This document shows positions 29,442 to 64,000 of a stretch of DNA of 64,000 nt, in pieces. This stretch comes from Schleiferiaceae bacterium. Lineage in GTDB: Bacteria; Bacteroidota; Bacteroidia; Flavobacteriales; Schleiferiaceae. A model generated the notes under the pieces. The model was not told the origin of the DNA. It searched no databases and saw nothing but the letters and a program-made list of their open reading frames with translations. Position 1 is the stretch's first letter, and each line of letters starts with the position of its first letter. The translations under genes and the position numbers were made by a program. The stretch lies in contig CAVWUM010000002.1 of NCBI GenBank assembly GCA_963758205.1, positions 899,613 through 963,612 of the forward strand, in the 5' to 3' direction.

Positions 29442-29453
29442 AAAAATAAAACG

Positions 29454-33680: not shown

Positions 33681-33784
33681 ATATAAATAGATTGATCCAA
33701 GGCTCGGAGCAGGCGGTTTGTCGCCTAAGCGGTCTGCTCTGGATTTGGGTTTCAAACAATGAAATGCTATAATTAAATTCTTAC

Positions 33785-34940
33785 ATGCACATAGTAGAAC
33801 CGGCAAAAGTGTTTATATCATATTGCCATACAGACGAAGAATTAAAAAAGAAGTTTCTATCCCACTTAGCTTCCTTAAGACAGTTAGGGGTTATTAAAGA
33901 CTGGCACGATCGAAAGATTAGTGCAGGTGAAGAATGGGACGGAAATATTAAACAAGAACTCAGAAGATGCCGATATCATTATACTTCTTATCAGTTCTGA
34001 TTTTCTTAATTCTGAATATTGTAGAGAGGTTGAAATAAAAGAAGCTATGGAAAAGCACGAGCAAAAAAGTGCTATGGTTGTTCCTGTAATTCTAAGACCT
34101 TGCGATTGGAAAGATTTCCCTTTTGGCAAGTTACAAGGATTGCCCCAGAATGTTACTCCCATAACAAAATGGAAAAATGAGGATGAGGCATTTTTAGATG
34201 TAGTTGAAGGAATTAAAAAGCTACTTACGCCACTAACAGTTAAAACTGAAGACACCTCATCCAAATTTATTCACTTCCAGCAAGATACAGTATTGGTAAA
34301 ACTACCACGTGGATATGTAGTAATTCATGATATTGAATTTAATGAAGATTCGGGTTGGGCCGTAACAGCCCATCACTACCATTACGATTACGATTTATAT
34401 GGAGGGACTCATTTTCATGAAAGCTATCAAAGAACATGGGAAACTCTCGATGGAAAATATTATCAGTGTTTAAAACTAGGAATACCAAAAGGGGATTGGA
34501 ATTACGCCTTAGATTTTTTAAGTCTTATGGTGGAAATCAGGACACGAGATAAAGCCACCAACCTTGAAGACTTAATCGAACTTGAATCCACTGATGATCA
34601 TCTAACATATCATAAAAAAGGCACAAAGATTCTGACACCCACTACGCCTCAATCGTTTAAAAAAGACAACAAGACTGGAGATTTAAGAGATATTATTGCA
34701 GAACTTGAATTGAGCCCTTGGAAGAACTACGAACTTGAAACTCTGCATAAGGAATTTGAATCTTTAAGAAGAACTGCTCACTTGACTTCATACGATTTGT
34801 TGCAACCCGACCATCCGGCCCTCCAGTATGTCAAAGAAATAGCTGAAGATTATAAAAGAAGTTTTGACTTGGATAATCTAAAGAAATGGACAGAACGATT
34901 GAGTGATGCATTGTATGACGTGATTAAATATGTCAGATAA
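33785..34940 (+). pseudogene. TIR-domain protein with an unknown C-terminal domain of about 230 aa; the reading frame is broken by a +1 frameshift inside the TIR domain
   Basis: ORF A (33785..34000) encodes the TIR strand-A and helix-A region, KVFISYCHTDEE...DWHDRKISAGEEWDGNIKQEL. ORF B (33921..34940) continues the TIR domain in the +1 frame, EDADIIILLISSDFLNSEYCREVEIKEAMEKH...VPVILRPCDW. One extra base is present near 33962. Confidence 0.75.
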
Positions 34941-43013: not shown

Positions 43014-43628
43014 TTACTTCGCCACATTAAACGTAATGATTATAGGCTTCTCAGTAATGGTGCGGGTTACTGAGGCACCTGAAACTGATTTAACCTGAGG
43101 GGAATAACTGTCCACCACAAAGTCAATAACCTTTACATCCGCTGCACCTTTGGGTAACTTAACTTCAAAATTCGGAGCTTTAAGATTGTTGGCCGTAGCT
43201 TTAAATACCACCAGCGCATAGTACTTTTCCTTTTCGTTGTAGGTGAGGTACGATTTTATCTTTTCCTCCTCATTAAGCCATTGCCTTTTTACGGCCACGT
43301 TATCACCCAAAATTTTCTTCATATTATGAAAAGCGTAAGCCGATGTTTTGGCCGGGTAGCCTCCGTTTCCAAATCGCGGATTGCCATAGAGGCCCATCCC
43401 GGTAAAGGTGGTATAATCATTTTTTGCCTCTGTCATCCACTTTTTATTATGATCGGGCATCAGTTTTCCGGTAGCCTCATCCAAAGTAAAAATGTCATAA
43501 TAGCCGCCTTTGTCGGCCATCCAGTATTGCGCAAGTTTATCAAGCCCGGAGAACCATATTTCAAGGCTCCCTCTAATCAGCCAATTGGCTTGTTGGTAAA
43601 ACATCCCGGCCTCATCGGGCATATCCAA
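43014..43628 (-). CDS. 204-aa ORF without a signal peptide or ATG start; likely the frameshifted C-terminal part of the preceding 998-aa secreted protein
   Basis: It overlaps the upstream ORF by 17 nt in another frame. Its called start is TTG. Removing one A from the A6 run at the junction fuses the two frames (…DREISRLKNQKPLDMPDEAGMFYQQ…). Confidence 0.45.
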   Translation of the reverse strand: MDMPDEAGMFYQQANWLIRGSLEIWFSGLDKLAQYWMADKGGYYDIFTLDEATGKLMPDHNKKWMTEAKNDYTTFTGMGLYGNPRFGNGGYPAKTSAYAFHNMKKILGDNVAVKRQWLNEEEKIKSYLTYNEKEKYYALVVFKATANNLKAPNFEVKLPKGAADVKVIDFVVDSYSPQVKSVSGASVTRTITEKPIIITFNVAK

Positions 43629-46608
43629 AGGCTTCTGATTTTTTAAGCCTGCTAATCTCCCTGTCCAGCTTGGCTATGGCTCCCTTATCGGGCACGGCTG
43701 TAGCCTTCAACTTCTCCTTCTGCTGCTCAAGCTCTTTTACCATCCTGTCTCTTTCAGCAACCGCATTGCTACTTTCCACACCAAAATCCTGCTTCAAAGG
43801 AGAAAACTTTCCGCCAGTGTGAGTGCCATAGCCCCATTCCGTAATCGTGGTTTTTACCTGTGGGTAAAATGATTTTAACCAGGAAGTTTCCTCGCGTATT
43901 GTTTCATATATATCATCATCCGTTGCTGTAAGCCCTTTTTCATCCTTATCATACGGAAAGCGCAAATACTGAGCACTGCGCTGCCCACCACTGGTGCCTG
44001 AGTAATGATGCCAGTTTGCCCAAAAATTGGGTGGCAAAATATAAAGCGGCATGCCGTTACCGGGATGTTTGGTTACCCCTTTGTCATTAAGCTCTTTTTT
44101 ACGTTTGGTGCGGATGGCCACAAGGGCATCAAGTGCGAGCTTAATATCGTAACAACCATCCTTTGTAGTACCCTGGTAAAGAAAATCGAGCAAGGGTGCG
44201 GCACACATATAACCAGTAATATTATTGTTTAATGGACCGGAGATTTGCCCCATATTTCCATCCATAATAGCACTCATGTAAGCTGCGGCCCATTGCGGCC
44301 ACATGTGCGCCAAAGGCCCATGCCAGGTTTGGTCGGTTTCATTTTCCCACTCCAGCATGTCCATGGTCCCTTGCCCTGTTTTTTCAACCTGACCTGGCTG
44401 CACCCACAGGGTTTTCATATCTACTTTATTGGGGCCATGCACTGCTGTGAGGTTATAAAAAAAAGCTGCATCATAGGCGTAGGTTCGTGGGTCAGAGAGT
44501 ACACTATCCCTCTTATCGGGATCCGCCAGGGCCTTGTGCTTATCCCACGGTATACGCATACCACGGTTGTAAATCTGTGTATTGGGATTTTCAGGATCAG
44601 TAACATCAAAATAGCTTGCAAGCCATGGTGAAACTTTTCCATCCTTCGTCCAATATTCAAGTACTTCCTTTGACTTTTCATAACCCTCGGGGTTAACCCG
44701 GTACTCTGTAACCTTTGCCTTTATATCTTCAGTCCGCTGGCTTTGCGCTCCTATCCCCCCTTCTCCCGTAAGGAGGTATGATGTGGTGGAGTAGGGTAAA
44801 AAATCTTCCGGATAGTCAATTTTGCCATTGCCATTCTGGTCCTTATCGTAATACCAGCCACCCTCCTGTTTGGCTTTTTGGTTAACATACCAGTTGGCGC
44901 CTTGCTGTATGCAGTATAAAATCTTAACATCAGGGTTAAGCGCTTTCACCTTTTTATTTCTGTAAATAATGTCATTCTTAAGCCAGCGTACGGCATTGCC
45001 ATCCTCACCCTCATGCTTTATGTAATCATAATGAGTGTTGTACTGTCCGTTGGTATTTTGATTGATAAAAAACTTACCCCCTATTTCATTGCTAAAGTCG
45101 CCATAACTCATATAGCAGCGCAGGTAATTAAACTTAGCACGCAACGTATCAGGGTCAGAGTTAAAGCAATTAGTACCAAAAAAATCATTAAAGGTGTTTT
45201 TGGTTTCCACTGCCGTGGGAAGATCTTCGGGCTTCATAAAACTGGTAATGTAACCGCCCCTGTATTTACCCGAGGCCACTATTTTTATCAGGGCTGAGTT
45301 TGTTTTACAATCGTTATACATATTGGGGTCGCTACTAACAATCTTAAGCCGCAAATAGCAGTAATAGTTTGGGTCATTAGTTAGATATCCTTTCCATCGG
45401 TTGGAGCGGTCAAACTCCAGGCTGTCAATAATCTTAGTCCAGCTGAAGTTATCTGTACTGCCGTATAAGGCGTACCAAAAATTGCAGGTAGCACCAGGGT
45501 TTATAGGGCGATTGTCCATCTGGTAAAATACTACCGTATCGAGCCTTGTTTCGCGATTCATGTAATAATAGGTACTCAAATCCTTCCACGGCTGCTTTAC
45601 GTCCTGAAACCGCTGCTTGAAATAGTACTCAGGTTTACCTGTACTAATTCCACTTAGCTTTCCATCTTTCCAGCTCACGTCATCCAGTTTCCAGGCTGAT
45701 TCAGGGTCGTGCACATTAGCAGTTGCCAGCGATTTATTATCCAGATCTTTCCAGTCCACCTCATAGCCCCCATACATTTCAATGGCATGATTTCTTGGAT
45801 CGTGATCCGGCCTTACCAGCCTGCTTTTACTTATCCTAGCCTCCTCATTCACCAGGGCATCGCAAAAATTACTAACCGGTTTTTTTGCTACCTGCTTCTT
45901 AGCTTCCTTACGGGATTCCACAGGCGCTGAGTTGCTCAATACGATACTCTCACTTTCAAATACCTCTGGTGCATGATAGTTATCCCGGGCATCCTCCACC
46001 ACCAAAGCTGCAATACTACTAACACTGCCATCTACCTTATTCACCTTTACCAGGATATTACCTTTAGAGTTGCTCTTAATGCTCACCTTAAAAGTGCGGC
46101 TGCGATTACCGGTTACACCGCTATAGCGAACGGCCGTGCCGTTTATCTCAATGGCAATTTCATTGCCCTCATAACCCCGCTGAGTGCTTAAAAATGTGAG
46201 CGTATAGAGGTAGTCTGGCTTTAAACCTGCAAGGCGAAATGCCCAGGCCTCTTTACTCCCCCAGCCTCTCCAAAGCACTTTATCTTCAAAAGCAGCTTCA
46301 ACCGGCTTGCCGTCATACTCTGTGCGATAAAAGGGAAAAGTAGTGGCAGCCTCCATAAAAATATCAACGGTGGTAGAATTGCCATTTTCATCCTTTAAAT
46401 TTTCAGCCAGCAAGCCCGTTGTTTTAGAGTCTGCGGTGATGTTATTCCAGGGTTTACCTGCCCCTTCCGCAAATCTTACCGGGTTGATATATATGGCGGG
46501 CTCTTTGGTTTGTGGAAGTTCATCACCGTAAGGATAAGCATATAGACCTACAATTAAAGAACTTACAAGTGAAAGAAGCAGGGAAATTTTGGGCAGCGAT
46601 AAGCTCAT
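43612..46608 (-). CDS. Large secreted hypothetical protein (998 aa as called); it probably continues into the downstream 204-aa ORF
   Basis: It has a signal peptide and the composition of a beta-rich extracellular protein (discoidin-like or carbohydrate-active?). It ends in a short coiled coil right at a T6/A6 homopolymer. Confidence 0.6.
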   Translation of the reverse strand: MSLSLPKISLLLSLVSSLIVGLYAYPYGDELPQTKEPAIYINPVRFAEGAGKPWNNITADSKTTGLLAENLKDENGNSTTVDIFMEAATTFPFYRTEYDGKPVEAAFEDKVLWRGWGSKEAWAFRLAGLKPDYLYTLTFLSTQRGYEGNEIAIEINGTAVRYSGVTGNRSRTFKVSIKSNSKGNILVKVNKVDGSVSSIAALVVEDARDNYHAPEVFESESIVLSNSAPVESRKEAKKQVAKKPVSNFCDALVNEEARISKSRLVRPDHDPRNHAIEMYGGYEVDWKDLDNKSLATANVHDPESAWKLDDVSWKDGKLSGISTGKPEYYFKQRFQDVKQPWKDLSTYYYMNRETRLDTVVFYQMDNRPINPGATCNFWYALYGSTDNFSWTKIIDSLEFDRSNRWKGYLTNDPNYYCYLRLKIVSSDPNMYNDCKTNSALIKIVASGKYRGGYITSFMKPEDLPTAVETKNTFNDFFGTNCFNSDPDTLRAKFNYLRCYMSYGDFSNEIGGKFFINQNTNGQYNTHYDYIKHEGEDGNAVRWLKNDIIYRNKKVKALNPDVKILYCIQQGANWYVNQKAKQEGGWYYDKDQNGNGKIDYPEDFLPYSTTSYLLTGEGGIGAQSQRTEDIKAKVTEYRVNPEGYEKSKEVLEYWTKDGKVSPWLASYFDVTDPENPNTQIYNRGMRIPWDKHKALADPDKRDSVLSDPRTYAYDAAFFYNLTAVHGPNKVDMKTLWVQPGQVEKTGQGTMDMLEWENETDQTWHGPLAHMWPQWAAAYMSAIMDGNMGQISGPLNNNITGYMCAAPLLDFLYQGTTKDGCYDIKLALDALVAIRTKRKKELNDKGVTKHPGNGMPLYILPPNFWANWHHYSGTSGGQRSAQYLRFPYDKDEKGLTATDDDIYETIREETSWLKSFYPQVKTTITEWGYGTHTGGKFSPLKQDFGVESSNAVAERDRMVKELEQQKEKLKATAVPDKGAIAKLDREISRLKKSEAFGYAR

Positions 46609-49940: not shown

Positions 49941-50279
49941 ATGAAACAGATTATTAAACAACTGGAAGCTATAAAGCGGGATATTGCCACTACTACAAAA
50001 CCTTCGCCCGCTTCATTACTGAAAAAGGCTGCACTGGCCTATTCATTACTCAATGTGTTTTATTCTCACAATAGTCTTGAGAATTTTGGGCCGGGTGAAT
50101 TTCAAAAAAAGTCGCTGGGGAAAATGGAACAGCTCATCCACAACTCCGACCAAATAATTGATGTAAAAGGCATCGACTTTTTAAAGTCGGAATTGCTGAC
50201 CCTGCTTAGCCTTCTTATTGTTATGGCGGATAGTGACTCAGAGTCAATAGAAGATAATGGCCTTGGAATGACCGGCTAG
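49941..50279 (+). CDS. Hypothetical protein (112 aa)
   Basis: An ORF with ordinary codon usage that follows a 416-bp AT-rich intergenic region. No motif was recognised. Confidence 0.3.
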   Translation: MKQIIKQLEAIKRDIATTTKPSPASLLKKAALAYSLLNVFYSHNSLENFGPGEFQKKSLGKMEQLIHNSDQIIDVKGIDFLKSELLTLLSLLIVMADSDSESIEDNGLGMTG

Positions 50280-50356
50280 GGTTATTCAATTTACAGCAAG
50301 CAAAAATCCCCTGGGCACTATGTGCCCAGGGGATTTTTGCTTTATAATTCCTAATA

Positions 50357-51058
50357 TCAATCTCTACTCAAAAAGAAGGAGATAACATACCAAAGTAAAA
50401 GCATAAAAGAGGCAAACAAACCAAGTGCCGCCACTACATGTTGAGTGTGATGATACTTATGTACAATGTTGGAAGTTTGATAAAGGATTGAAGCCGCAGC
50501 CAGTAAAATCATACCACCTATAAACACCAACCCTAAATCAAAGCCGAAGAGCATACCTGCCACAATTATTACAAGAGCAGTAATGCCACCTACCATAATA
50601 GCTGTGCGCAGAAAAGAGAAATCCTTACCGGTGAAGAAAACCACAGCCGTTAATGCCGTAAATAAACCGAGGGTAACGGTTAATGCCTTTTGCAGCAAAA
50701 GTGGGTCTTCAGCTACATTCATAGCAATATAAAGTAATGGCACAAAAATGAAGGCCTCGGCCACAATGTAGAGTACAAAACCTGCATATTGCATTTGCGG
50801 ATTATCCGTACCGGCAGCCCACCGCTCGGCAAAGTTGGTAACAAGCATAAAACCGCCCAGTACTATCAGCCAGGTGTAGCCCTGCGTCATGCTCAAGCCC
50901 ACGTTGATAATGGCCTCCGAGCTCAGAAATACCACTTCAATAAGTACAAACAATAAAAAAGCCAAAGCCAGGTGGCCATAGGTTTTCTTATAAAAAGCCG
51001 CGCGTACCTCCGCGCTGCTTTCAGCCAGGCCCAACTGTGGGTTATCAAAATTTTCCAT
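50357..51058 (-). CDS. Bax-inhibitor-1/YccA-family membrane protein
   Basis: Seven TMs and BI-1-like N- and C-terminal regions (AFYKKTYGHLALAF...). The length is 233 aa. Confidence 0.8.
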   Translation of the reverse strand: MENFDNPQLGLAESSAEVRAAFYKKTYGHLALAFLLFVLIEVVFLSSEAIINVGLSMTQGYTWLIVLGGFMLVTNFAERWAAGTDNPQMQYAGFVLYIVAEAFIFVPLLYIAMNVAEDPLLLQKALTVTLGLFTALTAVVFFTGKDFSFLRTAIMVGGITALVIIVAGMLFGFDLGLVFIGGMILLAAASILYQTSNIVHKYHHTQHVVAALGLFASFMLLLWYVISFFLSRD

Positions 51059-51146
51059 AAAGCGATGTTTTTAATTAGGGAGGGAAAATAGGGAAATGAT
51101 CAATGCCTCTATCACGCATTTCTTTAGCTACTAAATTCGCGCTTGT

Positions 51147-51366
51147 GCGAAATGTATGTAAAACATTTCTGAAATAAAAGTTGCAAAAAAAAAAAAACGA
51201 TTCTACTTTGGCTAAATGTTTAATCAATTAAATACATTTAGTATGAAAACAAACCTTTTAAAAAGCACCCTTATAATGGGAGGTATAGCTTTAATCTCTT
51301 TTACTACTTCCTGTAGTAAAGATCAATCAATGGCTGATGCGCCAAAAATTAAGAAAGATAGTGACT
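51147..51366 (+). repeat. Copy 1 of a roughly 220-bp near-identical block: promoter/leader plus lipoprotein signal-peptide coding region of the duplicated cassette
   Basis: It is identical to 53996..54213 apart from the A-tract length (13 vs 14) and a 4-bp CAAT unit (2 copies vs 1). Confidence 0.85.
51170..51215 (+). promoter_or_regulatory. Putative Bacteroidetes sigma-A promoter (TTG ... A13 spacer ... TACTTTG) upstream of lipoprotein copy 1; an identical element lies at 54021..54067
   Basis: gTTGcaaaaaaaaaaaaacgattcTACTTTGg approximates the -33 TTTG / -7 TAnnTTTG consensus with a spacer of about 20 nt. Its conservation in both cassette copies argues that it is functional. Confidence 0.35.
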
Positions 51367-52352
51367 CAATAGTCCTATTAATTGAAAACTTCATTGATGA
51401 TTATAATGATCATATGGAAAATGAATCAGGCTCTACAACACCTTCAATTGAGTACGACCACGCAATATGGTTACTAGAGGCAACTCTAAACTATCAAAAT
51501 GCGATTGATCCAGAAGGTTCTACCGTTTACGTTAATCCATCATCCCCTTTTAGCTCAACCGCACTAATTGATTGGACTGTTGGAGGAGGAGGAGGAACTG
51601 CTCTGGTAAGTGAAGCAGATTTATTTGAACTGTACGATGATATCTTTGAGAGCTATAGTGGTAAGGCTCCAATTACAGATATTGAGTTACTTGAAAATTC
51701 ATCATCCTAACTTACATTATCTATCTCAGGGTTTGATCTTACCACCACTTTACCCAATACAATAAATCCAATAACATCAAATGATGCTTTCCTGGCGGCA
51801 ATTGTTGGAACCTGTAACCCTGCACTACCTTCAGGAAGTGGCAATGCAAACCTCTCTGGAACCCGAAATGCAGCTGACAGAATAACAGAGGCCTTTGGAC
51901 CCTATTATCTTCAAAACCCTACCACCCTACCTCCGGGTTGGCGCATTGTTGGCTTTTATCATACTATTCTCTCTCATAGCGTTGGAGTCTCTCAAACCCC
52001 ACTGGTTATCCCAAGTTCTTGGGATTGGAAAAGCATACATATTCAAAGAGATCCATTTAACAACTATATAATTACACCCTCTGGAACAAATCAGGTGCAG
52101 CATTCAAAATTGTGGGGCGCAACACCAGAACACCTAAGTGGTACAATTGCTGACCCGTACGAATGCATGGGTAGCGTAAAGTTATTAGATTGGAAAGGTA
52201 AAGCAGAGGCACTTTGTCAAGGCGAAGTCAATACTTTCGGGGGAACCGTAGTTTCCATCGAATTATCAGCGTATCATGGTGGTGGCTTTCCATATTATAA
52301 CTATCATCGAATGGCGTGGAAGTCAGGAATATACTCTGATGACTTAGATTAA
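51216..52352 (+). pseudogene. Cassette copy 1 lipoprotein of about 378 aa (unknown function) interrupted by a single in-frame TAA at 51708-51710
   Basis: The ORFs at 51216..51710 and 52095..52352 are in the same frame. The 384 nt between them have no further stop and encode sequence homologous to copy 2 (AADRITEAFGPYYLQNP...). The lipobox reads SFTTSC. Confidence 0.7.
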
Positions 52353-52361
52353 TAAAATAAA

Positions 52362-53924
52362 ATGAAGAAATCCCAAATTTTATTATTATTAGGAGTTGCA
52401 GTTCTGCAACTCCTAATATTCAGCACCAATAGTGCGGGTCAAATGCTATATGATGGTGGCAGAGAAGATAGAGCAGGCAATTATATGCTCTATCAACAGG
52501 CCAGTTCTTTATATCATTTAGTGAGTTTTGAGCATGATCCCCCACCGTACGTAAACCCTGCGATAACATTTGAACATTTAGAATTTGATAGAAACTTACT
52601 TTTCCAAAGCTCCAGTAAGATTAGCTTACCTGTGCCTTCAGGTTTTCAATACAATGACTACCAACGCTTACGATCAGCCAATAACCGACTGCTAATGGCA
52701 CGTATTAATGCATCTAAGCCATCAGCTCCACCTTTTTCCAAATTTAAATTTTTAACACACTGGGAATTTTGCCGTTACAGAAATGACTCTGTAAAAGATT
52801 GTATGCAACTAACTCCAGATTCAGCTTACGGCACTCGCCTCTTGTCTCACTGGTTTTTGCCGAGAAATGATACACTGTATGCTATTGCGAGACTTTCATT
52901 GGGTGCAAACGATACCAATTCGCGAGAATACTTTATAAAACTGGATACCCTTTCTGGTAATGTTAGTCAAAGGGAGTTAAACCTCAGTTATAGCGGTGGA
53001 AAAGTTTATTTCGGGTCATCACCTATTGTTCATCCCAATGGGAATTTAATGATGGTAGGCTCTATTGATCAACGCCAACCCAGGCAGTTATATACCGTTT
53101 TGCTGGAAGTTGATAAAAATTTAACAACAGTTTATAAGAGCCAGGGCATTACCAGTCCGCTCTCCAATCTATATAAATTGTGGCGTATAGGTAATAAGGC
53201 CGTAGTGTTTTCCAGAAGTATATTTGACAACCCCAATCTACAACCCAACTACTCCTTTGCCATGTCATTTGAGGTATTTGATTTGGTAAATGATAGCTTA
53301 ATAGCGGAGTATAAATATCAGTTGAGCAAACCCTCAAACGATTACGATGCTCATGAAACTGCGGGGCCGGGAGTCTATTTTGATGGTAAATATTTTATAC
53401 TTTCCGGGACTATAAAGGACAGCTCGGTAAACTATCAAAGCTATCGCTCGGTAATCTTTGCTGTGGACACCAATTTCAGGTTATTAAACCACATTTCATT
53501 TGGAGATAGCTCTCGTTACAACCTCTCTTTTGTAAGCGCTATTATCCCTGAGCCAGACAGCGCGCACAACTTTATTTATGCAGGAAGCATACAAGGTGCG
53601 GTAATCAACAATGCACAATTTGATGTAACCTGGGGGCGCTTTAAAGTGAAAGATCCTTATGTTTCCTTGCCTGAAATTAACTGGAGAAGGACAGAGGTTT
53701 ATTTCTACCCCAACCCCTCCTCTACTCATGTAAATGTTTTAATAGACTCCGATAAGTTAAAACCCTACCAACTGGAGTTTTACAACCAAAAGGGGCAAAA
53801 GGTGTTGGAGGCTGAAACGGATGGTCTTAAAACCAGAGTAGCACATAATCTGGCGGCAGGGGTTTATACCGTGGTGGCTAGTAATGGGGTTAATAGGGAG
53901 GTGCTGAGTTTGGTAGTGAAATAG
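52362..53924 (+). CDS. Cassette copy 1 secreted protein with a T9SS type-A C-terminal domain
   Basis: It has a signal peptide and the C-terminal CTD VYFYPNPSSTHVNVLIDSDKL...GVYTVVASNGVNREVLSLVVK. It is paralogous to 55242..56801. Confidence 0.75.
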   Translation: MKKSQILLLLGVAVLQLLIFSTNSAGQMLYDGGREDRAGNYMLYQQASSLYHLVSFEHDPPPYVNPAITFEHLEFDRNLLFQSSSKISLPVPSGFQYNDYQRLRSANNRLLMARINASKPSAPPFSKFKFLTHWEFCRYRNDSVKDCMQLTPDSAYGTRLLSHWFLPRNDTLYAIARLSLGANDTNSREYFIKLDTLSGNVSQRELNLSYSGGKVYFGSSPIVHPNGNLMMVGSIDQRQPRQLYTVLLEVDKNLTTVYKSQGITSPLSNLYKLWRIGNKAVVFSRSIFDNPNLQPNYSFAMSFEVFDLVNDSLIAEYKYQLSKPSNDYDAHETAGPGVYFDGKYFILSGTIKDSSVNYQSYRSVIFAVDTNFRLLNHISFGDSSRYNLSFVSAIIPEPDSAHNFIYAGSIQGAVINNAQFDVTWGRFKVKDPYVSLPEINWRRTEVYFYPNPSSTHVNVLIDSDKLKPYQLEFYNQKGQKVLEAETDGLKTRVAHNLAAGVYTVVASNGVNREVLSLVVK

Positions 53925-53995
53925 TGCAACCTGAAAGTCTCAGGTAAAAATTCAAGTTGGAAAATATCTTAAAGGGGCACTTTATTATTCACGCC

Positions 53996-54213
53996 TGTGC
54001 GAAATGTATGTAAAACATTTCTGAAATAAAAGTTGCAAAAAAAAAAAAACGATTCTACTTTGGCTAAATGTTTAATCAATTAAATACATTTAGTATGAAA
54101 ACAAACCTTTTAAAAAGCACCCTTATAATGGGAGGAATAGCTTTAATCTCTTTTACTACTTCCTGTAGTAAAGATCAATGGCTGATGCGCCAAAAATTAA
54201 GAAAAGCGGAGCG
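53996..54213 (+). repeat. Copy 2 of the roughly 220-bp promoter/leader/signal-peptide block
   Basis: See 51147..51366. Confidence 0.85.
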
Positions 54214-55227
54214 GATTCTGCTGCCTCTTTGGTGGAAGACTTCCTTACGGATTATGAGGCATATGATGGTGGAACCGAGTTTTCTGATGACCCCACCGTC
54301 CCATACGAACACGCCATCTGGTTGATAGAAGCAGCCATTAATTACAGAAACTCTGTGGATCCAGTTGGTGACACAAAATATGTAGATTATTCGCAATCAT
54401 TTACAACCACCACCACCTTGCAATGGGGATATTCCTCAGGCGGTGGAGAAGCCTTGGTGAGCGAAAATGACATGCTGGATGTATTGGACGGCTTGGTGAG
54501 CGTTACAGATGGCAAAGCACCGATAAGTGATTTAGAAATTACTGGAAGTGATGGTTATATTATGAATTTACAGGTTAAGGGTGTGGACATTACCTCCGTA
54601 CAACCGGCTATTAATCCATTAACATTCAATGATGCTTACACAGCCGCCATAGGAGGTACCTGTAACGCAACGTTACCTTCTGGGCTAAACAACTATGTCC
54701 AGAGCCCAAAGGATGCCGCTGAAAGGATTACAGAGGCTTTTGGACCCTACTACCTGCAAAACCCCAACCTGCCTCCCGTGGGGTGGGCGATAACAGGATG
54801 GTATCATACCATCAAACAAAACAAAGTATTGAGGCCTTTCAATGGTGGTACATTACCTTATATGTGGCATTGGGTAAGCTTTTATGAAGAATATGACCCT
54901 GTTCTTCAAATGAATACTCGAACAGCCACCGGAACTGCAACACGTCAGCACGCCAATCTTTGGGGTGCCACAGAAGATTTCAATAATTTACCTTCAAGAT
55001 CGCCCCATGAATGCATGGGCTATATTATAGGAACCAATGAAAAATTGAATACCTGGAAAACCAGGGCTGAAAATTTAGCACAGGCGGAGGTCAATACTTT
55101 CCCTTATGGCGGAAGGGTTTTGGAAATTAAACTACTTTCTTACCAAAATGTGATCGGAAACCCTCTAGGTTCTGCTTTTCACTACATGCAATGGAAGTCG
55201 GGCGTATTTCAAACCCATGGCTTTTAA
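54068..55227 (+). pseudogene. Cassette copy 2 lipoprotein of about 385 aa, split by a 4-bp deletion between the signal peptide and the mature domain
   Basis: The signal peptide MKTNLL...SFTTSCSKDQ is in frame A and the body MADAPKIKK... is in frame B. Copy 1 has gatcaatcaatggctg where copy 2 has gatcaatggctg. Confidence 0.7.
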
Positions 55228-55241
55228 AAGGTACCTTAGTC

Positions 55242-56801
55242 ATGAAACAAAACATTCAATTAAAATCAATACTATGGGGAGTTGCAATCTTGCAACTCTT
55301 CTTTTTCATTGATGCCTATTCTCAGAACCAGTCACTGTATGATGGAGGAAGGGATGACCGCTCAGGCGATCAATTTTACTACGATTCTAAGACAGACCAA
55401 TACAAACTCTTGGCTTATGACCATGATATTCCGTTGTGGTTTGACACCACCATTACCTTTCATACACTTTCCTTTGATCGCGGCCTAAATGTAGTGAGCA
55501 CCCAAAAGACGGAAGTACCAACCCATCCAGGCTTTCACTATTATAGATATAATAAAGTAACCTCATCTAATTCGCTCCTTTTAATGAACCGGGTAAACCC
55601 CACCAACCGAGGCTATTTACCACAGACTTATCTGGAACATTGGGACCTGTGTAAGTACACGCCTGATTCTATTAAAAACTGTATAAAGCTTACCCCGGAC
55701 TCTACCTACGGTGTAAACATTTTTGACCATTGGTTTTTACCACAAAACGATACGCTGTACGCCATTGTGGAGTGCGCTATTGGCACCAACGACAGTATAG
55801 GCCGAACCATTTTAATAAAAATGGACACACAGACTACCGTAGTGACACATCAAGAAATAGAACTCTTCTACAATGGGAAAAGAATATTTTTTTCCAGTGG
55901 CCCTGCAGTTCATCCCAATGGAAATTTGCTTTTTACGGGAGAGCTATATGATACCACCAAAAAATCTTCATATGCGGCAATCGTAGAAATAGACAAAAAT
56001 TTCAGCATAGTGTACAATAGCTTTGCATTGTCCCAAGGGCTTACCCTTAAATATATTTGGGTGGTTAATGATAAAGCCGTGGTTTACATGAGGGGGGTGT
56101 ATCCGCATTCGGGCATGCCAAACCCTTATACCTACGCCATGTCAATGGAAGTTTTTGATTTAAAGAAAGATACGCTCCTTAAACGCTATCAGTTTCAAAT
56201 GGTACGTCCAACCAGCGATTTCGATTTAGGAGAAGTTGCCGGTTATGGTACTCACTTTGACGGGGAACGCTTTGTGCTATCGGCCACGCTTAATGAAGCA
56301 GACCAGAGAAATCGTCAGTACAAAACCTTTGTTTTTGCCATTGATACAACTTTTCAGCTGTTAAACAACATTTCTTTTACTGACAGTACTACACGATTCT
56401 ATTCGTATGTTTCGGCAATAATCCCTGAGCCTGATAGTGTAGGTAATTTTATTTACGAAGGCAGCCTTGCAGGGCCAAATATTAACAATGGCCAGTTTGA
56501 CATTATGTGGGGCCGTTTTAAAGCAAACCCAACTGGAATTTCACTCCCGGAAATGGCGTTCAGAAAAGCTGAAGTCTACTTCTACCCCAACCCTTCATCC
56601 ACTCATGTGGATGTTTTGGTAGACTCCGATAAGATAAAACCCTACCAGCTGGAGTTTTACAATCAAAAAGGCCAAAAGGTAATGGAAGCCCAAACGGAGG
56701 GCCGAAAAACCAGGGTGGCGCATAACCTGGCGGCAGGGGTTTATACAGTGGTGGCCACCAATGGGGTTAATAGGGAGGTGCTGAGTTTGGTAGTGGAGTG
56801 A
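55242..56801 (+). CDS. Cassette copy 2 secreted protein with a T9SS type-A C-terminal domain
   Basis: A signal peptide follows the Met at 55242. It is a paralogue of copy 1, with a divergent body and a CTD more than 85% identical. Confidence 0.75.
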   Translation: MKQNIQLKSILWGVAILQLFFFIDAYSQNQSLYDGGRDDRSGDQFYYDSKTDQYKLLAYDHDIPLWFDTTITFHTLSFDRGLNVVSTQKTEVPTHPGFHYYRYNKVTSSNSLLLMNRVNPTNRGYLPQTYLEHWDLCKYTPDSIKNCIKLTPDSTYGVNIFDHWFLPQNDTLYAIVECAIGTNDSIGRTILIKMDTQTTVVTHQEIELFYNGKRIFFSSGPAVHPNGNLLFTGELYDTTKKSSYAAIVEIDKNFSIVYNSFALSQGLTLKYIWVVNDKAVVYMRGVYPHSGMPNPYTYAMSMEVFDLKKDTLLKRYQFQMVRPTSDFDLGEVAGYGTHFDGERFVLSATLNEADQRNRQYKTFVFAIDTTFQLLNNISFTDSTTRFYSYVSAIIPEPDSVGNFIYEGSLAGPNINNGQFDIMWGRFKANPTGISLPEMAFRKAEVYFYPNPSSTHVDVLVDSDKIKPYQLEFYNQKGQKVMEAQTEGRKTRVAHNLAAGVYTVVATNGVNREVLSLVVE

Positions 56802-57180
56802 TGTGAGCGAAAGGAATACTTTCTCTTTTAAATTTTGAAAAAGATGTTCAAATCGATACTGATTTCATCTGACTCAACGGAACTATTTCAATTACCGGGT
56901 TTTTTATACGTCCTTTTTTCTTGATAAAAAATGGACCAAAAAATCAAGGCTTACAAACAAATAGTAACCTGCTTTTCATCAAGCCTAACTGCGGCTGGGT
57001 GATCCCCGAAATTCATAGGGGCTTCCCAGTCTTAGTAAGCCTTGATTTTAATCAGAACCCTATTTGTTTGAAGGCCGTTCTAAAAATTGCTTCGCAATTT
57101 TAAAGTAGAGAGGCACAGGAATACAACCGAAGCTGGACATTAATGGAAGGGCAATCAATTCAAAGGTTTCTCAAAACGCA

Positions 57181-57212
57181 AAAAAGGCATCAACTTTCGC
57201 TGATGCCTTTTT
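57181..57212. terminator. Bidirectional rho-independent terminator (A5-ggcatca-loop-tgatgcc-T5) just 3' of tRNA-Val(TAC)
   Basis: A 7-bp GC-containing stem with an 8-nt loop, flanked by an A-run and a T-run. It lies 13 nt past the tRNA 3' end. Confidence 0.6.
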
Positions 57213-57224
57213 CTGTTTGAAGAG

Positions 57225-57299
57225 TGGGAGCTGAGGGATTCGAACCCCCGACCCCCTCGGTGTAAACGAGATGCTCTGAACCAACTGAGCTAAGCTCCC
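57225..57299 (-). tRNA. tRNA-Val (anticodon TAC), 75 nt
   Basis: The reverse complement GGGAGCTTAGCTCAGTTGGTTCAGAGCATCTCGTTTACACCGAGGGGGTCGGGGGTTCGAATCCCTCAGCTCCCA folds into a cloverleaf. The anticodon loop is TTTACAC. Confidence 0.85.
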
Positions 57300-57365: not shown

Positions 57366-59399
57366 TTACTCAAATTTTAAAATTCTAAACTCAGTCCTTC
57401 TATTGTATTGATGCTCAGGCTCAGAGCATGCAATACCATCCTCACATTGGTTGGTTAACTGCATTTCGCCATAGCCCTTTCCGCTAATACGGCTGGCACT
57501 TATACCATGGTTAATGATGTACTTCATACTGCTCTGTGCCCTGCGCTGCGATAAATCCTGGTTGTAACCATACTGCCCGCGGCTGTCGGTGTGGCTGGCC
57601 ACCTCTATCACCATACCCGGGTTTTCCTTCATAATCTTTACAATCTTATCTAGTTCGCGGGCTGCATCGGGGCGTATGTTATCGCGGTTATAGTCAAAGT
57701 AAATAGGGTTAATATTGAGCATTTTACCCAAATCCTTTACCATAGGTATTTTTATCAGCCCCCCGGTTTCCGGTATATTTTTCATTTCCACCAATACGCG
57801 GTTACTGCTGTAATCCTCATAAAAGGCAATAAAGCGTAATTCCCCATTGGGGTAATTATGGCTGATGCGATTGGTTCCGTCACCTTTCATCTGCACCGCA
57901 TTGAGTAGCACCCCGCGTTTGTCAAATATGTTGATGGTAGCATTAGGCAATCCCTTACCGCTAATCTGATCATACACCTGCAGTTGAATACCGCCTGTAG
58001 CCACCACCGTAACCCGGCCGGGACCTTTTGCACCACCGGGATTATTAATTACCGGTACACTACTGGCCACAACAGGCATATTAGTAGTATCCATTATTTC
58101 CTCATAACGGAATTTAGCATTTTGCTTTACATCAAAACCATAAATATCATCGCGGCCCTGTCCGCCTTCGCGATTAGATGAAAAGTAGCCCCTCTTACCT
58201 TTATCATCCAGTATAAACCCAAAGTCGTCCATGGCATCATTAATAGGATAACCCAGGTTGGCCGGGTACGTATAATCAATAGCAGAGGTTACAAAAACAT
58301 CAAGCCCGCCAAGCCCCAGGTGGCCGTTACTTGAAAAGTACAGGAGGCTATCCTTATAAATAAACGGAAAAACCTCATCGCCACTGGTATTTACATTACT
58401 ACCCAGGTTTTTGGGCTGCCCCCAGCTCCAGCCTCTTTTTTCGCACACGTATAAATCCATACCGCCAATGCCACCGGGCATATCGCTGGCAAAGTACAGC
58501 TTGCGCCCATCCTTACTAAGGGCAGGGTGCTGGCATGAGTAGCCACTAATATTAAAAGGAAGTTCCTTTGGCTCGGACCAGGCTGTATTGCCTCCATCGC
58601 TTACCTTTTGGCTACTGAATATAGAAAGGCGAACCGTGCTTTTATCGTCTGCTAAGAGTTTACCATTGGGGTGTGAGGTATTCCTGGTAAAGATTACCAA
58701 ATCACCATTGGGGCTGAATGTAAGCGGACCATCATGATAAGGCGAATTGAGATAGGGATAGGATTCCGTTCTCTTCAACTGGCCATCGGTTTCTTTTTCG
58801 GCAATAAAATAATCCAGGTAATAGGTATCATTCCAGCTATGCTTGCGCTTTACCAGTTCCTGATCAGGCCGGTTAGAAGTAAAAATAATGTAATCACCAT
58901 ACCAGGCCGGGCTAAACTCATCATACTCGGTATTCATCTTGAGCTCAAAAAGCTCATAGGTACTTTTATCCTCATACAGGTCGGATACCTTTTTTACGGA
59001 GTAGTTGCTGTAGGTAAACGCCCTGGAGTCTGTAGGCACTATTTCCCTGTATTTATCAAACCATTGCTGGGCCTCGGCAAATTTCTTTTCAGACTCCAGC
59101 ACTTTAGCATAATGGAAATATTCTACCGGCTCTACCCTTTCAAACTGCACCAGCTTAGCATACCAGATAGAGGCGTTGGCATAATCGCCCTGCAGGCGAT
59201 ACCCATTGGCCAGGCGCTTCATTAAGTATTGTTGGTTTTCGTGCCCATGCTTTAGCGCGTATTTGTAGCGCGATATAGCATCAGGGTAATTGTAATTTTC
59301 ATAAAAATTGTCTGCACGGGTTATAACCGCGGTTTCAGAACAACTGCCAATCGCAATAACAGCCAGACAAAAAAACGGGAGTTGGAGTAGCTTTTTCAT
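57366..59399 (-). CDS. PorE-like T9SS-associated lipoprotein: TPR + TolB-like beta-propeller + CRD-like domain + OmpA_C peptidoglycan-binding domain
   Basis: A signal peptide with Cys (AIGSCS), N-terminal TPR repeats, WD40/TolB-type repeats, and the C-terminal OmpA motif (NIRPDAARELDKIVKIM...SHTDSRGQYGYNQDLSQRRAQS). The domain order matches P. gingivalis PorE, and it sits next to a porP/sprF gene. Confidence 0.7.
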   Translation of the reverse strand: MKKLLQLPFFCLAVIAIGSCSETAVITRADNFYENYNYPDAISRYKYALKHGHENQQYLMKRLANGYRLQGDYANASIWYAKLVQFERVEPVEYFHYAKVLESEKKFAEAQQWFDKYREIVPTDSRAFTYSNYSVKKVSDLYEDKSTYELFELKMNTEYDEFSPAWYGDYIIFTSNRPDQELVKRKHSWNDTYYLDYFIAEKETDGQLKRTESYPYLNSPYHDGPLTFSPNGDLVIFTRNTSHPNGKLLADDKSTVRLSIFSSQKVSDGGNTAWSEPKELPFNISGYSCQHPALSKDGRKLYFASDMPGGIGGMDLYVCEKRGWSWGQPKNLGSNVNTSGDEVFPFIYKDSLLYFSSNGHLGLGGLDVFVTSAIDYTYPANLGYPINDAMDDFGFILDDKGKRGYFSSNREGGQGRDDIYGFDVKQNAKFRYEEIMDTTNMPVVASSVPVINNPGGAKGPGRVTVVATGGIQLQVYDQISGKGLPNATINIFDKRGVLLNAVQMKGDGTNRISHNYPNGELRFIAFYEDYSSNRVLVEMKNIPETGGLIKIPMVKDLGKMLNINPIYFDYNRDNIRPDAARELDKIVKIMKENPGMVIEVASHTDSRGQYGYNQDLSQRRAQSSMKYIINHGISASRISGKGYGEMQLTNQCEDGIACSEPEHQYNRRTEFRILKFE

Positions 59400-60313
59400 C
59401 AGAAGTATCGTGGTGATTGAATTCTTTTTTCCTTAAAAATGAAATCGTAGGTAATGCCTATTTCATGCGAACCGGTATTGTAATTCTGCAGTTCGGTAAG
59501 CGTATAATCATAGGAGTAACCCACCTTAAGCTGTGGCGTAAAATTGTAATCCAGCAAAACACCAACTGATTCGCTCAACCTGTAATAGCCACCAAGCCAA
59601 AAGCGATCATCAAATATAAAAGTGGCCGTGGCATCAAATGATAGTGGCGAACCACCCACCATACGCGCCATTACCGTTGGCCTGAATTTTACCAGTGGCG
59701 ACATTTCCAAAACGATGCCTGAGTTTACAAAGAGGTGCCTTTTTTCGGATACGGCTCCATCCAGGCTACCATTATCATAAAGTTGATTTTTTATGATTTT
59801 GGGCATGGATACACCCAGGTAAAATTTATCAGTATAGTAATACACCCCCACCCCCACGTTAGGCATGGTTCGGTTTACGTTTTCACTAAAATTACCATCA
59901 CCGCTGTTGGCGAGTATAAGCTCAGTAAGGTTGGAGTTAAAAAAATTGGCCCCGATTTTTACACCACCTGCCAGGTAGCCTCGTTCGCTCACTTTTACCC
60001 TTCCGGATAAATCACCATAGATACCGGTTTGCCTTGTTGGGCCTACCCTATCATGTATAAGCGAAAGGCCAAAGCCAAGTTTCTCTGAAGCTAAGGGACC
60101 ATGCACGGCAATGGATTGGGTAGTTGGAGCACCTTCTATACCCACCCATTGGCTGCGGTGCAATAAATTAAATGTTAGCGCCTCGCGGCTGCCTGCATAG
60201 GCGGGGTTTACCGTAAGCATATTGCTTCGGTACTGGGTAAACAGCGGATCCTGCTGTGCCCAAAGGGCACTGCAAATCACACTGATGGTTAGAGTAGAGA
60301 GTAGTTTTTTCAT
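59399..60313 (-). CDS. sprF: PorP/SprF-family type IX secretion membrane protein (partner of the upstream type-B CTD adhesin)
   Basis: After a signal peptide the N-terminus reads QQDPLFTQYRSNMLTVNPAYAGS. It lies directly downstream of a gene ending in a type-B CTD, as sprF does with sprB. Confidence 0.8.
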   Translation of the reverse strand: MKKLLSTLTISVICSALWAQQDPLFTQYRSNMLTVNPAYAGSREALTFNLLHRSQWVGIEGAPTTQSIAVHGPLASEKLGFGLSLIHDRVGPTRQTGIYGDLSGRVKVSERGYLAGGVKIGANFFNSNLTELILANSGDGNFSENVNRTMPNVGVGVYYYTDKFYLGVSMPKIIKNQLYDNGSLDGAVSEKRHLFVNSGIVLEMSPLVKFRPTVMARMVGGSPLSFDATATFIFDDRFWLGGYYRLSESVGVLLDYNFTPQLKVGYSYDYTLTELQNYNTGSHEIGITYDFIFKEKRIQSPRYF

Positions 60314-63300
60314 CGTTTCAAGTAGATATAACCAGTGAGCGGTTTAGAGCCATCACCCAAATCCAGAATGTAGAAGTAGGTGCCGGCCGGCAAGTATTGA
60401 TCTCCGTTTATCACTCCGGATTCCGAAGCTTTACCGTCCCAGGTATTGTCATAAGGTTTTTTAGCGTAAACCTTATTCCCCCAGCGGTTAAAGATCATTA
60501 AGTTGTTTTCAGGATAATCAAATAGCTGCGGTATTACCAGGTAATCATTCAGCCCATCACCATCTGGCGAAATACCCTGCGGCACATACACCTCGCAGTT
60601 ATCAGGGTCCAGCCAGTCAGGTATCCCATCCCTGTCGCAGTCGTCATCAGTTTCAATTGTATCAGGTACGCCATCGCCATCCGAGTCAAGATCGCGGAAA
60701 TCAGGTATTCCATCGCCATCCGTATCACGTGGCCTGTCTGGTTCAGGTCCGCGCTCGTCTGTATCTGAGCGGCCGTCATTATCCGAATCCAGGTCGCGGA
60801 AATCGGGCCACCCGTCTCCATCGGTATCTACAGGGTTACTTTCAAGATAACCACCGTAATCAGAATCATAGGCATCATCGATACCATCACCATCGGCATC
60901 ATTACCTGTTGGTAATACAATTACAGTAGAGCGTTCCACATAATCCGGTATACCATCGTTATCCGAATCTATATCACGAAAGTCCGGTATACCATCGCCA
61001 TCAAAATCCATAACCGTTGGGAAACAAATATTGCGGATGGGTGATGCCTCGGTCATATCAAATATGCCATCGTTATCAGAGTCTACATCATTATAATCGT
61101 TTCTTAAATCGCCATCGGTATTTATGGTAAGGGTTTCAAAGCTATCCGAAAGACTATCCTGATCGGTATCTGCAGGCTGTACAAATATGTACACCCAGGC
61201 ACTGGCACAGCGCGTTGGAAAACCGTTATCACATATCTGGTATAGTAATGAATCAGGACCGCAATACGTAAGGTTGGCCCTGTATGCTACAGTTGTATCT
61301 CCGGACGTAGCCTGGCCGTGACGTGGCTGCGTAAGTACTGAAATGATTAACGAATCGCCTTCAGGGTCAAAGTCGTTCCAAAGCACCTGCACATCAAACA
61401 ACTGGTTGCTAAACACACCTATGGTATCATTAATGGCTACGGGCGGGTCGTTTTTAGGATCAACAAAAACATAAACCCAGGCCGTAGCACAAATTGGTGG
61501 TGTGGGTACACCTATATCACAAATCTGGTATTGCAGGCTATCAAAACCTATAAAACCATTGGCTGGTGTGTAAGTGAGCACACCGTTTAGGTACTGCACC
61601 ATTCCATTAACGGGAGACACAAGTACCTGAAATGAAGTTGTATCAAGGGTTGAATTATCAATACTATCTGAATCATTAATAAGCACAGAAATCTGCACCG
61701 GGGCATTAACCCCGGTACTGGCTGAATCATTTAAGGCTTCAGGCGCATCATTTACCGGAAGTATAGTAACGTAAAGCAGTAAGGTATCACAGCCATTGGG
61801 GTTGGCGTTATCGCATACTACCACCTCTACTGAATCAGCACCATTATAGTTAGGGTTAGCGGTGTAGGTAAAGCAGGTGTCAGCACCAGCCAAACCACTA
61901 ACCTGCCCATGGCCACCTAAAACGTTGGCATAATTTACTGATAGTGGTTCATCATCAGCATCAGTTGCACTGACGCAATATTTAAAAAACGAATCTTCAA
62001 AAATTACTATGCTATCGCGATCCATCGGGTTGCCCATTCCATCATCAATAATGGGGTTATCCTGCCCGGGTATTACCGTAATATATACTGTAGCTACATC
62101 GCATAATGGGTTAGGCGAGGTGGTATCGCATACTTCATACACCAGCGTATCAAAGCCATTATAATTACTGAATGGCGCGTAGGCCAGGGTTCCGTTGGTG
62201 ATGGTAACGAAGCCATGTTTTACATTGCTGATAATGCTGTAGGTAAGTGGGTCATAATTGGGGTCAAAATCATTAGCCCCGATATGATGCGTTAAAGGCA
62301 CATCCTCAAAGGTGGAAACGGTATCATTGCCGGCAACCGGGGGCAGGTTATTTTTAGGAAAAACAATTACGTAGTGCCCAATGGAACATAAAACGGGCAT
62401 ACCTGTATCGCATACGCTATAGGTTACCGTATCCACACCATAAGGATACAGCGCGTTAGAGATATACCTGATGCTATCGCCTACTACTTTGGCAGTTCCA
62501 TATTTTGGGCCATTAACTATGGTGAATGAAAGTGTTTTGCTTTCAATGTCATAGTCGTTTTTCATTACCAGCTTGGCAACAGAATCTCCGGGGTTTACGG
62601 CACTCACATCAATAATAGCCGCAGGAGGATCATTAACCGGAAGTACATTAATAATAATGGTAGCGGTATCGCAGCCTGAAGGCAAACCATCATCACAAAA
62701 CACAAGTGTTAAGGTATCCGCACCATTAAAATCGGGATTGGGGTAATACGTGAAACAACTGTCACCAGAATTAATGTAGCTGGTATAGCCCGAAGCCGGA
62801 GGGTTCAGCACAAGGCTTATATCCCCGGTGTCAAATTCAATATCATTTACATTGAGGCATACCACCAGGCTGTCATCCTCATTTACCGTAAGGGTTGCAA
62901 TGGTATCATTTACAGAAGGTACTCCGTTACCGGATAGTATTACTGGCGGATCATTTACCGGTAATACATTAATAGGTATAAAAACGGTGTCACACCCGGC
63001 AGGGGTTTGGTTATCACATACTTCAATAATCAGTGTATCGGGGCCGAAATAATTAGCGGTGGGAATATAATTGAAGCATGAGTCGCCATCAAAAATATTA
63101 GCCAAAGTACCATGCTGTGGCCCTTCTGAATACTCCGGTAATAGTAACGGTATCGTTATCATACTCCACCCAACCGAGGCAAATATTCAAGGTGTTATCT
63201 TCCAACACATTAAGCACGGCAGAGGAGTCATTTACTACCGGAAGCCCATTCACGGTTACTACATCAGGCTCAAGGTTGGCATCATATACTGTAATATAAA

Positions 63301-64000
63301 TATAGGCCGTATCACATCTTGGTACCGAGAAGGTATCGCACACCTCATAGCAAATACGGTCAACTCCTTTAAACCCAAGATTTGGAGTATAGGTAAAAGT
63401 ACTGGTGAGTGTATCAAATACCACAGTACCATTGGCAGGGCCTCCTTTTATAGAAAGTGAAAAAGGGTTTAACTCATTTAATACGGCAACATCATTTATC
63501 AGGGGGTTTATGTTAACCGATTTGCCTTCGTTTACCGAAGCGGAATCATCAACCGATTCTGGCGGACAAAACTCAAACCGTATGTTGGTAAACTGAAGCC
63601 TTTGCTCAAAGGCAGCACTCCAGGTATTTATAAACCTTTCATTACCATAATTATTGATGTAATCGCGGCAAGGCAATGTGGTACAACCGGTAAGGTTTAC
63701 ATTGCTCGAAAACCTTGAATCATCCCAATACAAAGGCAAAACAGTTTTTTGTGAAGGCCCGCGGTACCTTGAAAAGATATACCCATTGGGGTGATGCTCA
63801 GCATCATATATCGGGATATGTATGAGCCCCGCCTGGTAGTGCATATCAACAGCAATATTGGCGCTACGGGCGGTATCGCCCAGGCCATCAAGGCCATCCC
63901 ATGGTATGCAGTTGGCCCCTTGAAAAACCCTGCTGAAAAGTATCCTGTCTTTCCCGCCAGATTGGTATCCGGCTACAGTATCCATATCTAAAATAACAGA
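60310..64000 (-). pseudogene. Giant SprB-like cell-surface adhesin, 5' end outside the window: tandem repeats of about 95 aa with paired Cys and VNDPP motifs, thrombospondin-type-3 Ca-binding repeats, and a T9SS type-B C-terminal domain. The frame is broken near 63140-63160
   Basis: The C-terminus IFNRWGNKVYAKKP...GTYFYILDLGDGSKPLTGYIYLKR matches the gliding-motility-associated CTD. DxDxDG repeats precede it. ORF 63098..63985 continues into ORF 60310..63162 only after a -1 shift (…DNDTVTIT / LLPEYSEGPQ…). Confidence 0.65.

Follow-up and report, generated by a model that had tools for sequence, protein, structure and literature searches.

The stretch analysed here, 64,000 nucleotides of contig CAVWUM010000002.1 from a Schleiferiaceae bacterium (positions 899,613 to 963,612; hereafter the window, whose own numbering is used throughout), contains a two-gene unit repeated head to tail between a Bax1-I gene and a tRNA-Val gene. 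The first gene of each unit encodes a lipoprotein and the second a protein with a C-terminal sorting domain (CTD) of the type IX secretion system (T9SS). We propose that this is probably a lineage-specific operon for two envelope proteins, present as old alleles or paralogues stacked at a variable tRNA-flanked site, whose ends are held by selection and double as recombination homology and whose cores diverge fast and are exchanged. An operon restricted to the Owenweeksia clade and made of anciently diverged units is the best explanation of the data.

The analysis combined a listing of the open reading frames (ORFs) of the window, a search for repeats and a MAFFT alignment of 51100-53990 with 53952-56870. 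Repeat finding and alignment bear out the original prediction, made from the sequence alone, of a two-gene unit occurring twice head to tail: unit 1 runs from about 51136 to 53987 and unit 2 from about 53988 to 56801, with a period of 2852 nt that becomes 2848 past a 4-nt indel and 2877 in the CTD. Self-alignment gave a profile of three tiers, with end blocks of high identity around diverged cores, and not uniform divergence. Measured in 60-nt segments of the alignment, identity is 98-100% at about 51140-51300 and about 87-92% where a segment includes the 4-nt gap; it is 35-65% over both gene bodies, with brief peaks such as the RITEAFGPYYLQNP region, and 70-93% in the final 240 nt or so of the second gene, and it falls to background right past the stop codons. 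The cores of the two units share about 50% of their DNA (40-60%), and their products are 43.9% (lipoprotein) and 43.3% (T9SS core) identical, in line with the 35-45% first put forward; the peptide motifs quoted at that time were all found. The last 230 bp or so, said to be more than 85% identical, are so at 85.8% over 225 nt, or 84% when counted over 79 codons. The claim that the first 220 bp or so are identical holds for the 107 non-coding nucleotides (100%) but not for the remainder of this 5' block: blastn of the two blocks (Table 1) gives 96.8%, the differences being one T/A change (GGT/GGA) and the 4-nt gap.

The T9SS gene starts 6-14 nt past the end of the lipoprotein gene. A lipoprotein of about 380 aa had been read in both units, and this part of the prediction fails, since neither copy is intact: copy 1 has an in-frame TAA and copy 2 has lost 4 nt. 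The stop codon of copy 1 stands where each of the five aligned homologues has Tyr or Phe. Where copy 1 and L001, the single close species compared, have GATCAATCAATGG, copy 2 has GATCAATGG; one TCAA unit is missing two codons past the lipobox and, because of this loss, the signal peptide ORF is out of frame with the mature part. The mature-part ORF, as assembled, encodes a product 100% identical to a database protein that starts at the same ATG (P0001, 349 aa; NCBI, ENA). Intact lipoproteins are found in relatives, with 356-368 aa as recorded in L001, L002 and L003 and 379 aa in L087.

The interrupted genes reflect either an error of the assembly or the genuine decay of a partner that can be dispensed with. 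That both cassettes are intact in the organism, the TAA and the 4-nt deletion being long-read consensus errors, is a possibility to be taken seriously, although we hold it to be somewhat improbable. Indeed, at least four other genes of the window are frame-broken by comparison with intact orthologues (L001, L006) or Pfam profiles (Table 1). This amounts to about one lesion per 9-10 kb, which means either residual assembly indels or a pseudogene-rich genome, and with so many frame disruptions in the assembly any pseudogene claim needs read support. The contig is 1.85 Mb long, and polishing may misplace reads in a duplicated block such as the one that holds the 4-nt indel. However, both lesions for which an orthologue was aligned, near 43630 and 63127, consist of one inserted base, whereas those of the lipoprotein genes are a substitution and the loss of a repeat unit; the chance that both 1.1-kb genes were hit at the background rate is estimated at about 1-2%; and the lipoprotein is wholly absent from relatives L004 and L005. 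By these comparisons the lipoprotein would be a dispensable partner of the second protein.

We then compared silent and replacement sites (pS and pN, the proportions of synonymous and nonsynonymous sites that differ). Over the first 38 lipoprotein codons, pS is 0.042 between the copies (one synonymous difference) and 0.21-0.25 to L001; beyond these codons it is 0.76-0.80, with a pN of 0.40-0.43. Taken over the cores, pS between the copies is saturated at 0.80-0.82 (0.82 in the T9SS core) and pN is 0.39-0.41; as background, window and L001 differ with a pS of 0.70 in the S9 peptidase gene, 0.68 in Bax1-I and 0.81 in orf112. In the 5' block, about 217 aligned positions hold one difference between the copies, compared with about nine, plus the length of an A tract, to L001; within its 107 non-coding nucleotides the copies do not differ at all, and L001 differs at 3 positions and in tract length (A13/A16). 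The two copies are more alike than either is to L001, which calls for homogenisation, or a recent shared origin, of the 5' block after the cores diverged. Near-identical silent and non-coding sites, saturated flanks and copies closer to each other than to the next species, the marks of conversion between paralogues, are all found at this block. The same block is under unusually strong constraint between species: in the alignment of the window with L001, identity peaks there at 94-97%, compared with 76-86% in Bax1-I and 36-62% in other intergenic DNA, and the signal-peptide codons are kept even in L002 and L003. Of the homogenisation originally proposed for this end, the excess likeness of the two copies stands, but selection on a regulatory and targeting element contributes to the conservation of the block.

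Exchange with another lineage is directly supported by the T9SS gene of copy 1. It is 97-100% identical to the L004 gene over 52842-53320 (about 480 nt), about 72-92% from 53320 to about 53800 and just 37-60% in the 5' third; the adjoining Bax1-I genes of the window and L004 have 79% DNA identity and a pS of 0.67. A core segment moved recently between species, unless L004 is an assembly chimera.

At the 3' end the situation is different. The CTD is near-invariant in seven close family members that are 36-80% identical overall, and therefore most of the CTD likeness is ordinary purifying selection on the sorting signal. Family pairs are 65-85% identical in CTD DNA, the window pair (84%) being matched by L002 and L005 (85%), and CTD pS is 0.495 between the window copies, 0.52 between copy 2 and L002 and 0.41 between copy 1 and L004. 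There is nevertheless a switch of partner: at three-way informative sites copy 1 goes with L004 (105:13) as far as about 53753 and, beyond that point, with copy 2 (28:13; Fisher's p = 7e-12, with a breakpoint picked post hoc). Over the final 169 nt neither copy has a closer relative than the other copy, with 85.8% identity against 69-78% in cross-genome pairs, an excess mostly at replacement sites (pN 0.053 vs 0.10-0.27; pS 0.43 over the last 57 codons). Since the copies differ at half of the CTD synonymous sites, any homogenisation of the 3' end is old; recent homogenisation of the CTD was rejected on this pS of about 0.5. The pattern is compatible with a 3' end that was shared or converted long ago, or with a copy 1 core that was replaced later. 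Gene conversion had been invoked for both homogenised ends; recombination does shape the locus, as the contrast between the 5' block and the saturated cores indicates, but the CTD mostly reflects selection across the family.

Could purifying selection alone, acting on old duplicates whose regulatory region, signal peptide and CTD cannot change, account for these ends with no gene conversion? The CTD speaks for it, being near-invariant across the family and having a copy-to-copy pS close to that between copy 2 and L002, as do the 95% conservation of the 5' block between species and the signal-peptide codons kept in L002 and L003. We nevertheless consider this explanation unlikely. It does not predict that the block differs once between the copies and some nine times from L001, A-tract length apart, with its non-coding part 100% identical, nor that the copies are closest to each other in the last 169 nt although the copy 1 core groups with L004; moreover, exchange does occur, as is seen from the tract that has 99% identity to L004.

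The content of the site also varies among relatives. The S9 peptidase encoded next to the locus is 86% identical to that of an Owenweeksia sp. metagenome-assembled genome (MAG; L006), and the next matches (72-74%) include those of a second Owenweeksia sp. MAG and other Flavobacteriales. Both protein families are small. The lipoprotein family comprises four proteins among 5.8 billion clusters, plus that of L087, recognised through its context (hhalign probability 100%). The T9SS core has seven close relatives; a HMMER scan of 1.84 billion representatives with this core returned 21 at E <= 0.001, most of them 504-538 aa long, and the CTD was present in 10 of the 10 members scanned. No family member was found in the GTDB species representatives with the T9SS core, nor in the JGI metagenomes with either the lipoprotein or the T9SS core. 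A distant T9SS family member, P0012, is encoded elsewhere in the assembly of L006 (L088).

The survey of relatives that had been recommended gave 0, 1 or 2 units at the tRNA-Val-flanked site. At this site (locus A, between orf112/Bax1-I and tRNA-Val) the window has two units. L003 has exactly one, the 3' end of tRNA-Val lying about 120 nt past the T9SS stop codon, and L001 has at least one before its contig ends. In L004 the T9SS gene directly follows Bax1-I, with neither lipoprotein gene nor 5' block. In L006 (Owenweeksia sp. EA21-07, the closest species representative; 8864-9248 compared with 50280-57224 of the window) both Bax1-I and the units are lacking, and orf112, tRNA-Val and the OmpA-like gene lie side by side. 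Between tsaD and an adenine glycosylase gene is a further site (locus B), which holds the full pair in L002 and L087 and the T9SS gene alone in L005. The pair is thereby conserved at two loci across five genomes, and in L003 and L087 its genes overlap, an arrangement suggestive of translational coupling. As for the two genes forming a pair, this is true of one subclade, but the association is not obligate, T9SS genes occurring without the lipoprotein in L004, L005, L086, L088 and L089; the distant T9SS family members (these last three and L090) have no neighbouring lipoprotein gene. The T9SS gene is the older and more widespread partner, independent of the lipoprotein. Finally, the lipoproteins of L001 at locus A (9968-11071) and L002 at locus B (8855-9958) are 70% identical, closer than any locus-A pair, and therefore cassettes do not track the locus. 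Such a pattern implies that cassettes move between loci or genomes.

Two structures were seen at the edges of locus A. The 420-nt gap between unit 2 and tRNA-Val, of which only the 34 nt beside the tRNA are common to L006, holds an imperfect inverted repeat (56948-57076; 52-nt arms, 71% complementary, 25-nt loop) that has no Rfam match. Between the convergent orf112 and Bax1-I genes lies a perfect hairpin with a 21-bp stem (50298-50342), likely a bidirectional terminator.

The 5' block carries putative regulatory elements. Its TTG, followed by a 20-nt spacer (largely the A13 tract) and TACTTTGG, resembles the Bacteroidota promoter consensus, TTG-N19-TAnnTTTG, and is regarded as a putative promoter. 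Palindromes with AAATGT..ACATTT arms flank it on both sides. Sites of this kind number only four in the window, with two in each unit, where chance would give 0.17, and they are candidate operators; if they act as such, the conservation of the non-coding part of the block would follow. A sigma-70 promoter scan did no better than shuffled expectation, a model that does not apply to Bacteroidota promoters. The Rfam scan of 49.5-57.5 kb found tRNA-Val only, the weak matches in the 5' block being at chance level and below the gathering score, and RNA folding of the 5' untranslated region and start region was unremarkable (z = -2.0). A mobile-element origin of the block was considered and rejected, since the window has no copies of it beyond the two cassette starts.

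These elements also raise the question of a phase-variable switch, in which slippage in the A13 tract would set the spacing between the -33 and -7 elements, or slippage of TCAA the reading frame. The A13 tracts lie in the putative promoter spacer of both units and are the sole A or T runs of at least 9 in the 64 kb, L001 has A16 at the same place (about 9909-9924), and the frameshift of copy 2 is a change in the number of repeat units. Yet the tract has the same length in both units, it is lacking in L002 and L003, and two TCAA units are too few for high-frequency slippage. We therefore consider a switch of this kind improbable. We give no more credence to the broader proposal that the 220-nt block is a portable recombination handle, swapping lipoprotein and T9SS alleles between loci or species, combined with an on/off switch controlled by slippage or a repressor.

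Concerning the proteins, the prediction that the second genes carry a T9SS CTD was confirmed by two profiles, both above their curated cut-offs in each copy: Por_Secre_tail (PF18962) with 30.7 and 30.1 bits (Pfam cut-off 27) and TIGR04183 with 31.5 and 32.4 bits (NCBIfam cut-off 23). In all T9SS homologues a hydrophobic N-terminus is followed by Gln, and the AlphaFold2 model places a helix at residues 4-19, consistent with a putative signal peptide. T9SS machinery is encoded in the genome, as indicated by a PorP/SprF family protein (TIGR03519, 59399-60313; 268.9 bits vs a cut-off of 90.55) whose gene adjoins that of a PorE/CHU_0125-like protein, the latter scoring below its own cut-offs. The model of P0003, built from seven sequences, is all-beta (pLDDT 63.7, pTM 0.60), and Foldseek against PDB returned beta-propellers only (WD40, sialidases, CylK, paraoxonase, ulvan lyase). 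The TM-scores did not exceed 0.41, and the matches therefore indicate a fold class for the core, and no function. The T9SS core of about 420 aa is thereby modelled as a beta-propeller. In the lipoprotein the lipobox reads LISFTTSC, followed by SKDQ; its Cys is invariant in the five aligned homologues and has an aligned Cys in the sixth, that of L087. A secreted toxin or enzyme whose cognate lipoprotein serves as immunity protein or inhibitor, the pair diversifying through an arms race, would match the gene order, the tight coupling and the rapid divergence of both proteins, but the Pfam, NCBIfam and PADLOC scans gave no toxin, enzyme or defence-family match, and T9SS genes persist without the lipoprotein (L004, L005, L086, L088, L089) or with both copies interrupted, as here, when loss of immunity would be lethal or self-harming, for which reason this very improbable reading was rejected.

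We return to the two-envelope-protein operon, which could function as follows. Each unit would have a Bacteroidota-type putative promoter between two palindromes, then the lipoprotein gene, then the propeller-T9SS gene, and both genes would be transcribed together. The lipoprotein would go to the outer membrane; the propeller would be exported by the T9SS, then released or anchored at the surface; and, where both are present, the two proteins would probably cooperate at the cell envelope. As to evolution, the data show that purifying selection keeps the ends that carry targeting and regulation; these ends double as recombination homology, and the 5' block has been homogenised between the units after the nearest sampled species split off. 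Segments of the cores have been swapped with other lineages, and the cores have diverged to synonymous saturation with a pN of about 0.4. The outcome is allele stacking and mosaicism, typical of variable surface-protein loci.

Several points weigh against this picture. Within the genome, the excess identity of the block comes down to about 1 substitution, compared with about 9 between species. L004 is a short-read Logan contig, and an assembly chimera could mimic its mosaic tract. Co-transcription, export and protein-protein interaction are all inferred. Pfam, NCBIfam and PADLOC scans of all four proteins recognised the CTD only and neither core, and profile searches of both families against PDB sequences had no match below E = 0.3. 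For the lipoprotein, AlphaFold (six sequences) yielded an unusable model, with a pLDDT of 44 and no meaningful Foldseek matches. Surface exposure of the lipoprotein is doubtful as well: the Bacteroidota surface lipoprotein export signal (LES) requires K-(D/E)2 at positions +3 to +5 (Lauber et al. 2016, PMC5080379), KD alone failed to export SiaC (PMC5080379), and the lipoprotein has a single acidic residue there.

Table 1. Features of the two units, of the site that holds them and of the frame-broken genes elsewhere in the window.
Feature	Position	Strand	Remarks
5' block, unit 1	51136..51356	+	blastn vs unit 2; 94.9% identical to L001
Palindrome IR-1, unit 1	51149-51169	+	
Candidate -33 TTG, unit 1	51181-51183	+	
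A13 tract, unit 1	51185-51197	+	
-7-like box TACTTTGG, unit 1	51204-51211	+	
Palindrome IR-2, unit 1	51212-51241	+	
Lipoprotein ATG, unit 1	51243	+	then signal peptide with lipobox Cys
(TCAA)x2, unit 1	51323-51330	+	
Lipoprotein gene, copy 1	51243..52352	+	one frame, in-frame TAA at 51708-51710
T9SS cargo gene, copy 1	52362..53924	+	520 aa, P0003, intact; type A CTD 53685-53921
Spacer between units	53925..53987	+	unique; no counterpart 3' of unit 2
5' block, unit 2	53988..54204	+	4-nt deletion relative to unit 1
Palindrome IR-1', unit 2	54001-54021	+	
A13 tract, unit 2	54037-54049	+	
Palindrome IR-2', unit 2	54064-54093	+	
Lipoprotein ATG, unit 2	54095	+	
Single TCAA, unit 2	54175-54178	+	
Orphaned signal-peptide ORF, lipoprotein copy 2	54095..54325	+	out of frame after codon 28
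Mature part, lipoprotein copy 2	54178..55227	+	349-aa ORF, P0001; without signal peptide as assembled
T9SS cargo gene, copy 2	55242..56801	+	519 aa, P0005, intact; CTD about 56562-56798
orf112	49941-50279		boundary of variable site, with Bax1-I
Bax1-I	50357-51058		boundary of variable site
tRNA-Val(TAC)	57224..57299	-	other boundary of variable site
PspA/IM30	29454-30187		two shifts within about 80 nt, at about 29548 and 29625
TIR-domain gene	33785-34940		frame-broken, at about 33960
1195-1199-aa protein	43014-46608		frame-broken; single-base insertion near 43630 (aligned to orthologue)
Big_9/cadherin/CHU_C adhesin	60310-64000		frame-broken; single-base insertion near 63127 (aligned to orthologue)

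Two further gene groups were observed in the window. Right past tRNA-Val, on the minus strand, 57366-64000 is a classical T9SS type-B cargo module, made up of a PorE/CHU_0125-like OmpA lipoprotein, PorP/SprF (TIGR03519, 269 bits) and a large Big_9/cadherin adhesin with CHU_C. Further upstream, 27366-39918 resembles a defence or stress island, with a PLD-like nuclease, a helix-turn-helix regulator, PspA, a 715-aa coiled-coil protein, a 194-aa protein, a TIR-domain protein and a 1662-aa DUF3686/DUF7902/AAA ATPase.

If the proposed picture is true, the locus would be a marine Flavobacteriales example of recombining envelope-protein loci of variable copy number, and it would bring two undescribed families, that of the lipoprotein (about 370 aa) and that of the T9SS propeller cargo (about 520 aa), which could be deposited as such. 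Both families are extremely rare. A specialist would expect the pattern seen, in which targeting ends are conserved, cores vary and mosaic exchange occurs, and no long-standing question is opened.

Three described systems can be set beside the unit. In common with LES surface lipoproteins (PMC5080379), the lipobox Cys is followed by S-K-D/E, with K at +3 and an acidic residue at +4 as in C-X-K-(D/E)2-X; unlike them, the family has only one acidic residue (CSKDQ, CSKEQ, CSKKE). The second protein is built like T9SS type A CTD cargo (PF18962/TIGR04183), with a putative signal peptide at the N-terminus and, at the C-terminus, a sorting domain of about 75 aa that scores above the cut-offs, and a PorP/SprF gene lies 2.6 kb from the cassettes; its passenger of about 420 aa differs in having no match to any described family. 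For the evolutionary pattern, the closest described analogue is the lpl cluster of S. aureus (Tsuru and Kobayashi 2008, PMC2568036). There the conserved block is central in each ORF of a one-gene unit, whereas here the blocks are at the ends of a two-gene unit, and the present case has two copies only, a Bacteroidota host and T9SS targeting. Both, however, consist of tandem envelope-protein paralogues in a variable site, with copy number and mosaics that vary between genomes, and in both a highly conserved nucleotide block provides the site of homologous recombination by which the variable regions are shuffled.

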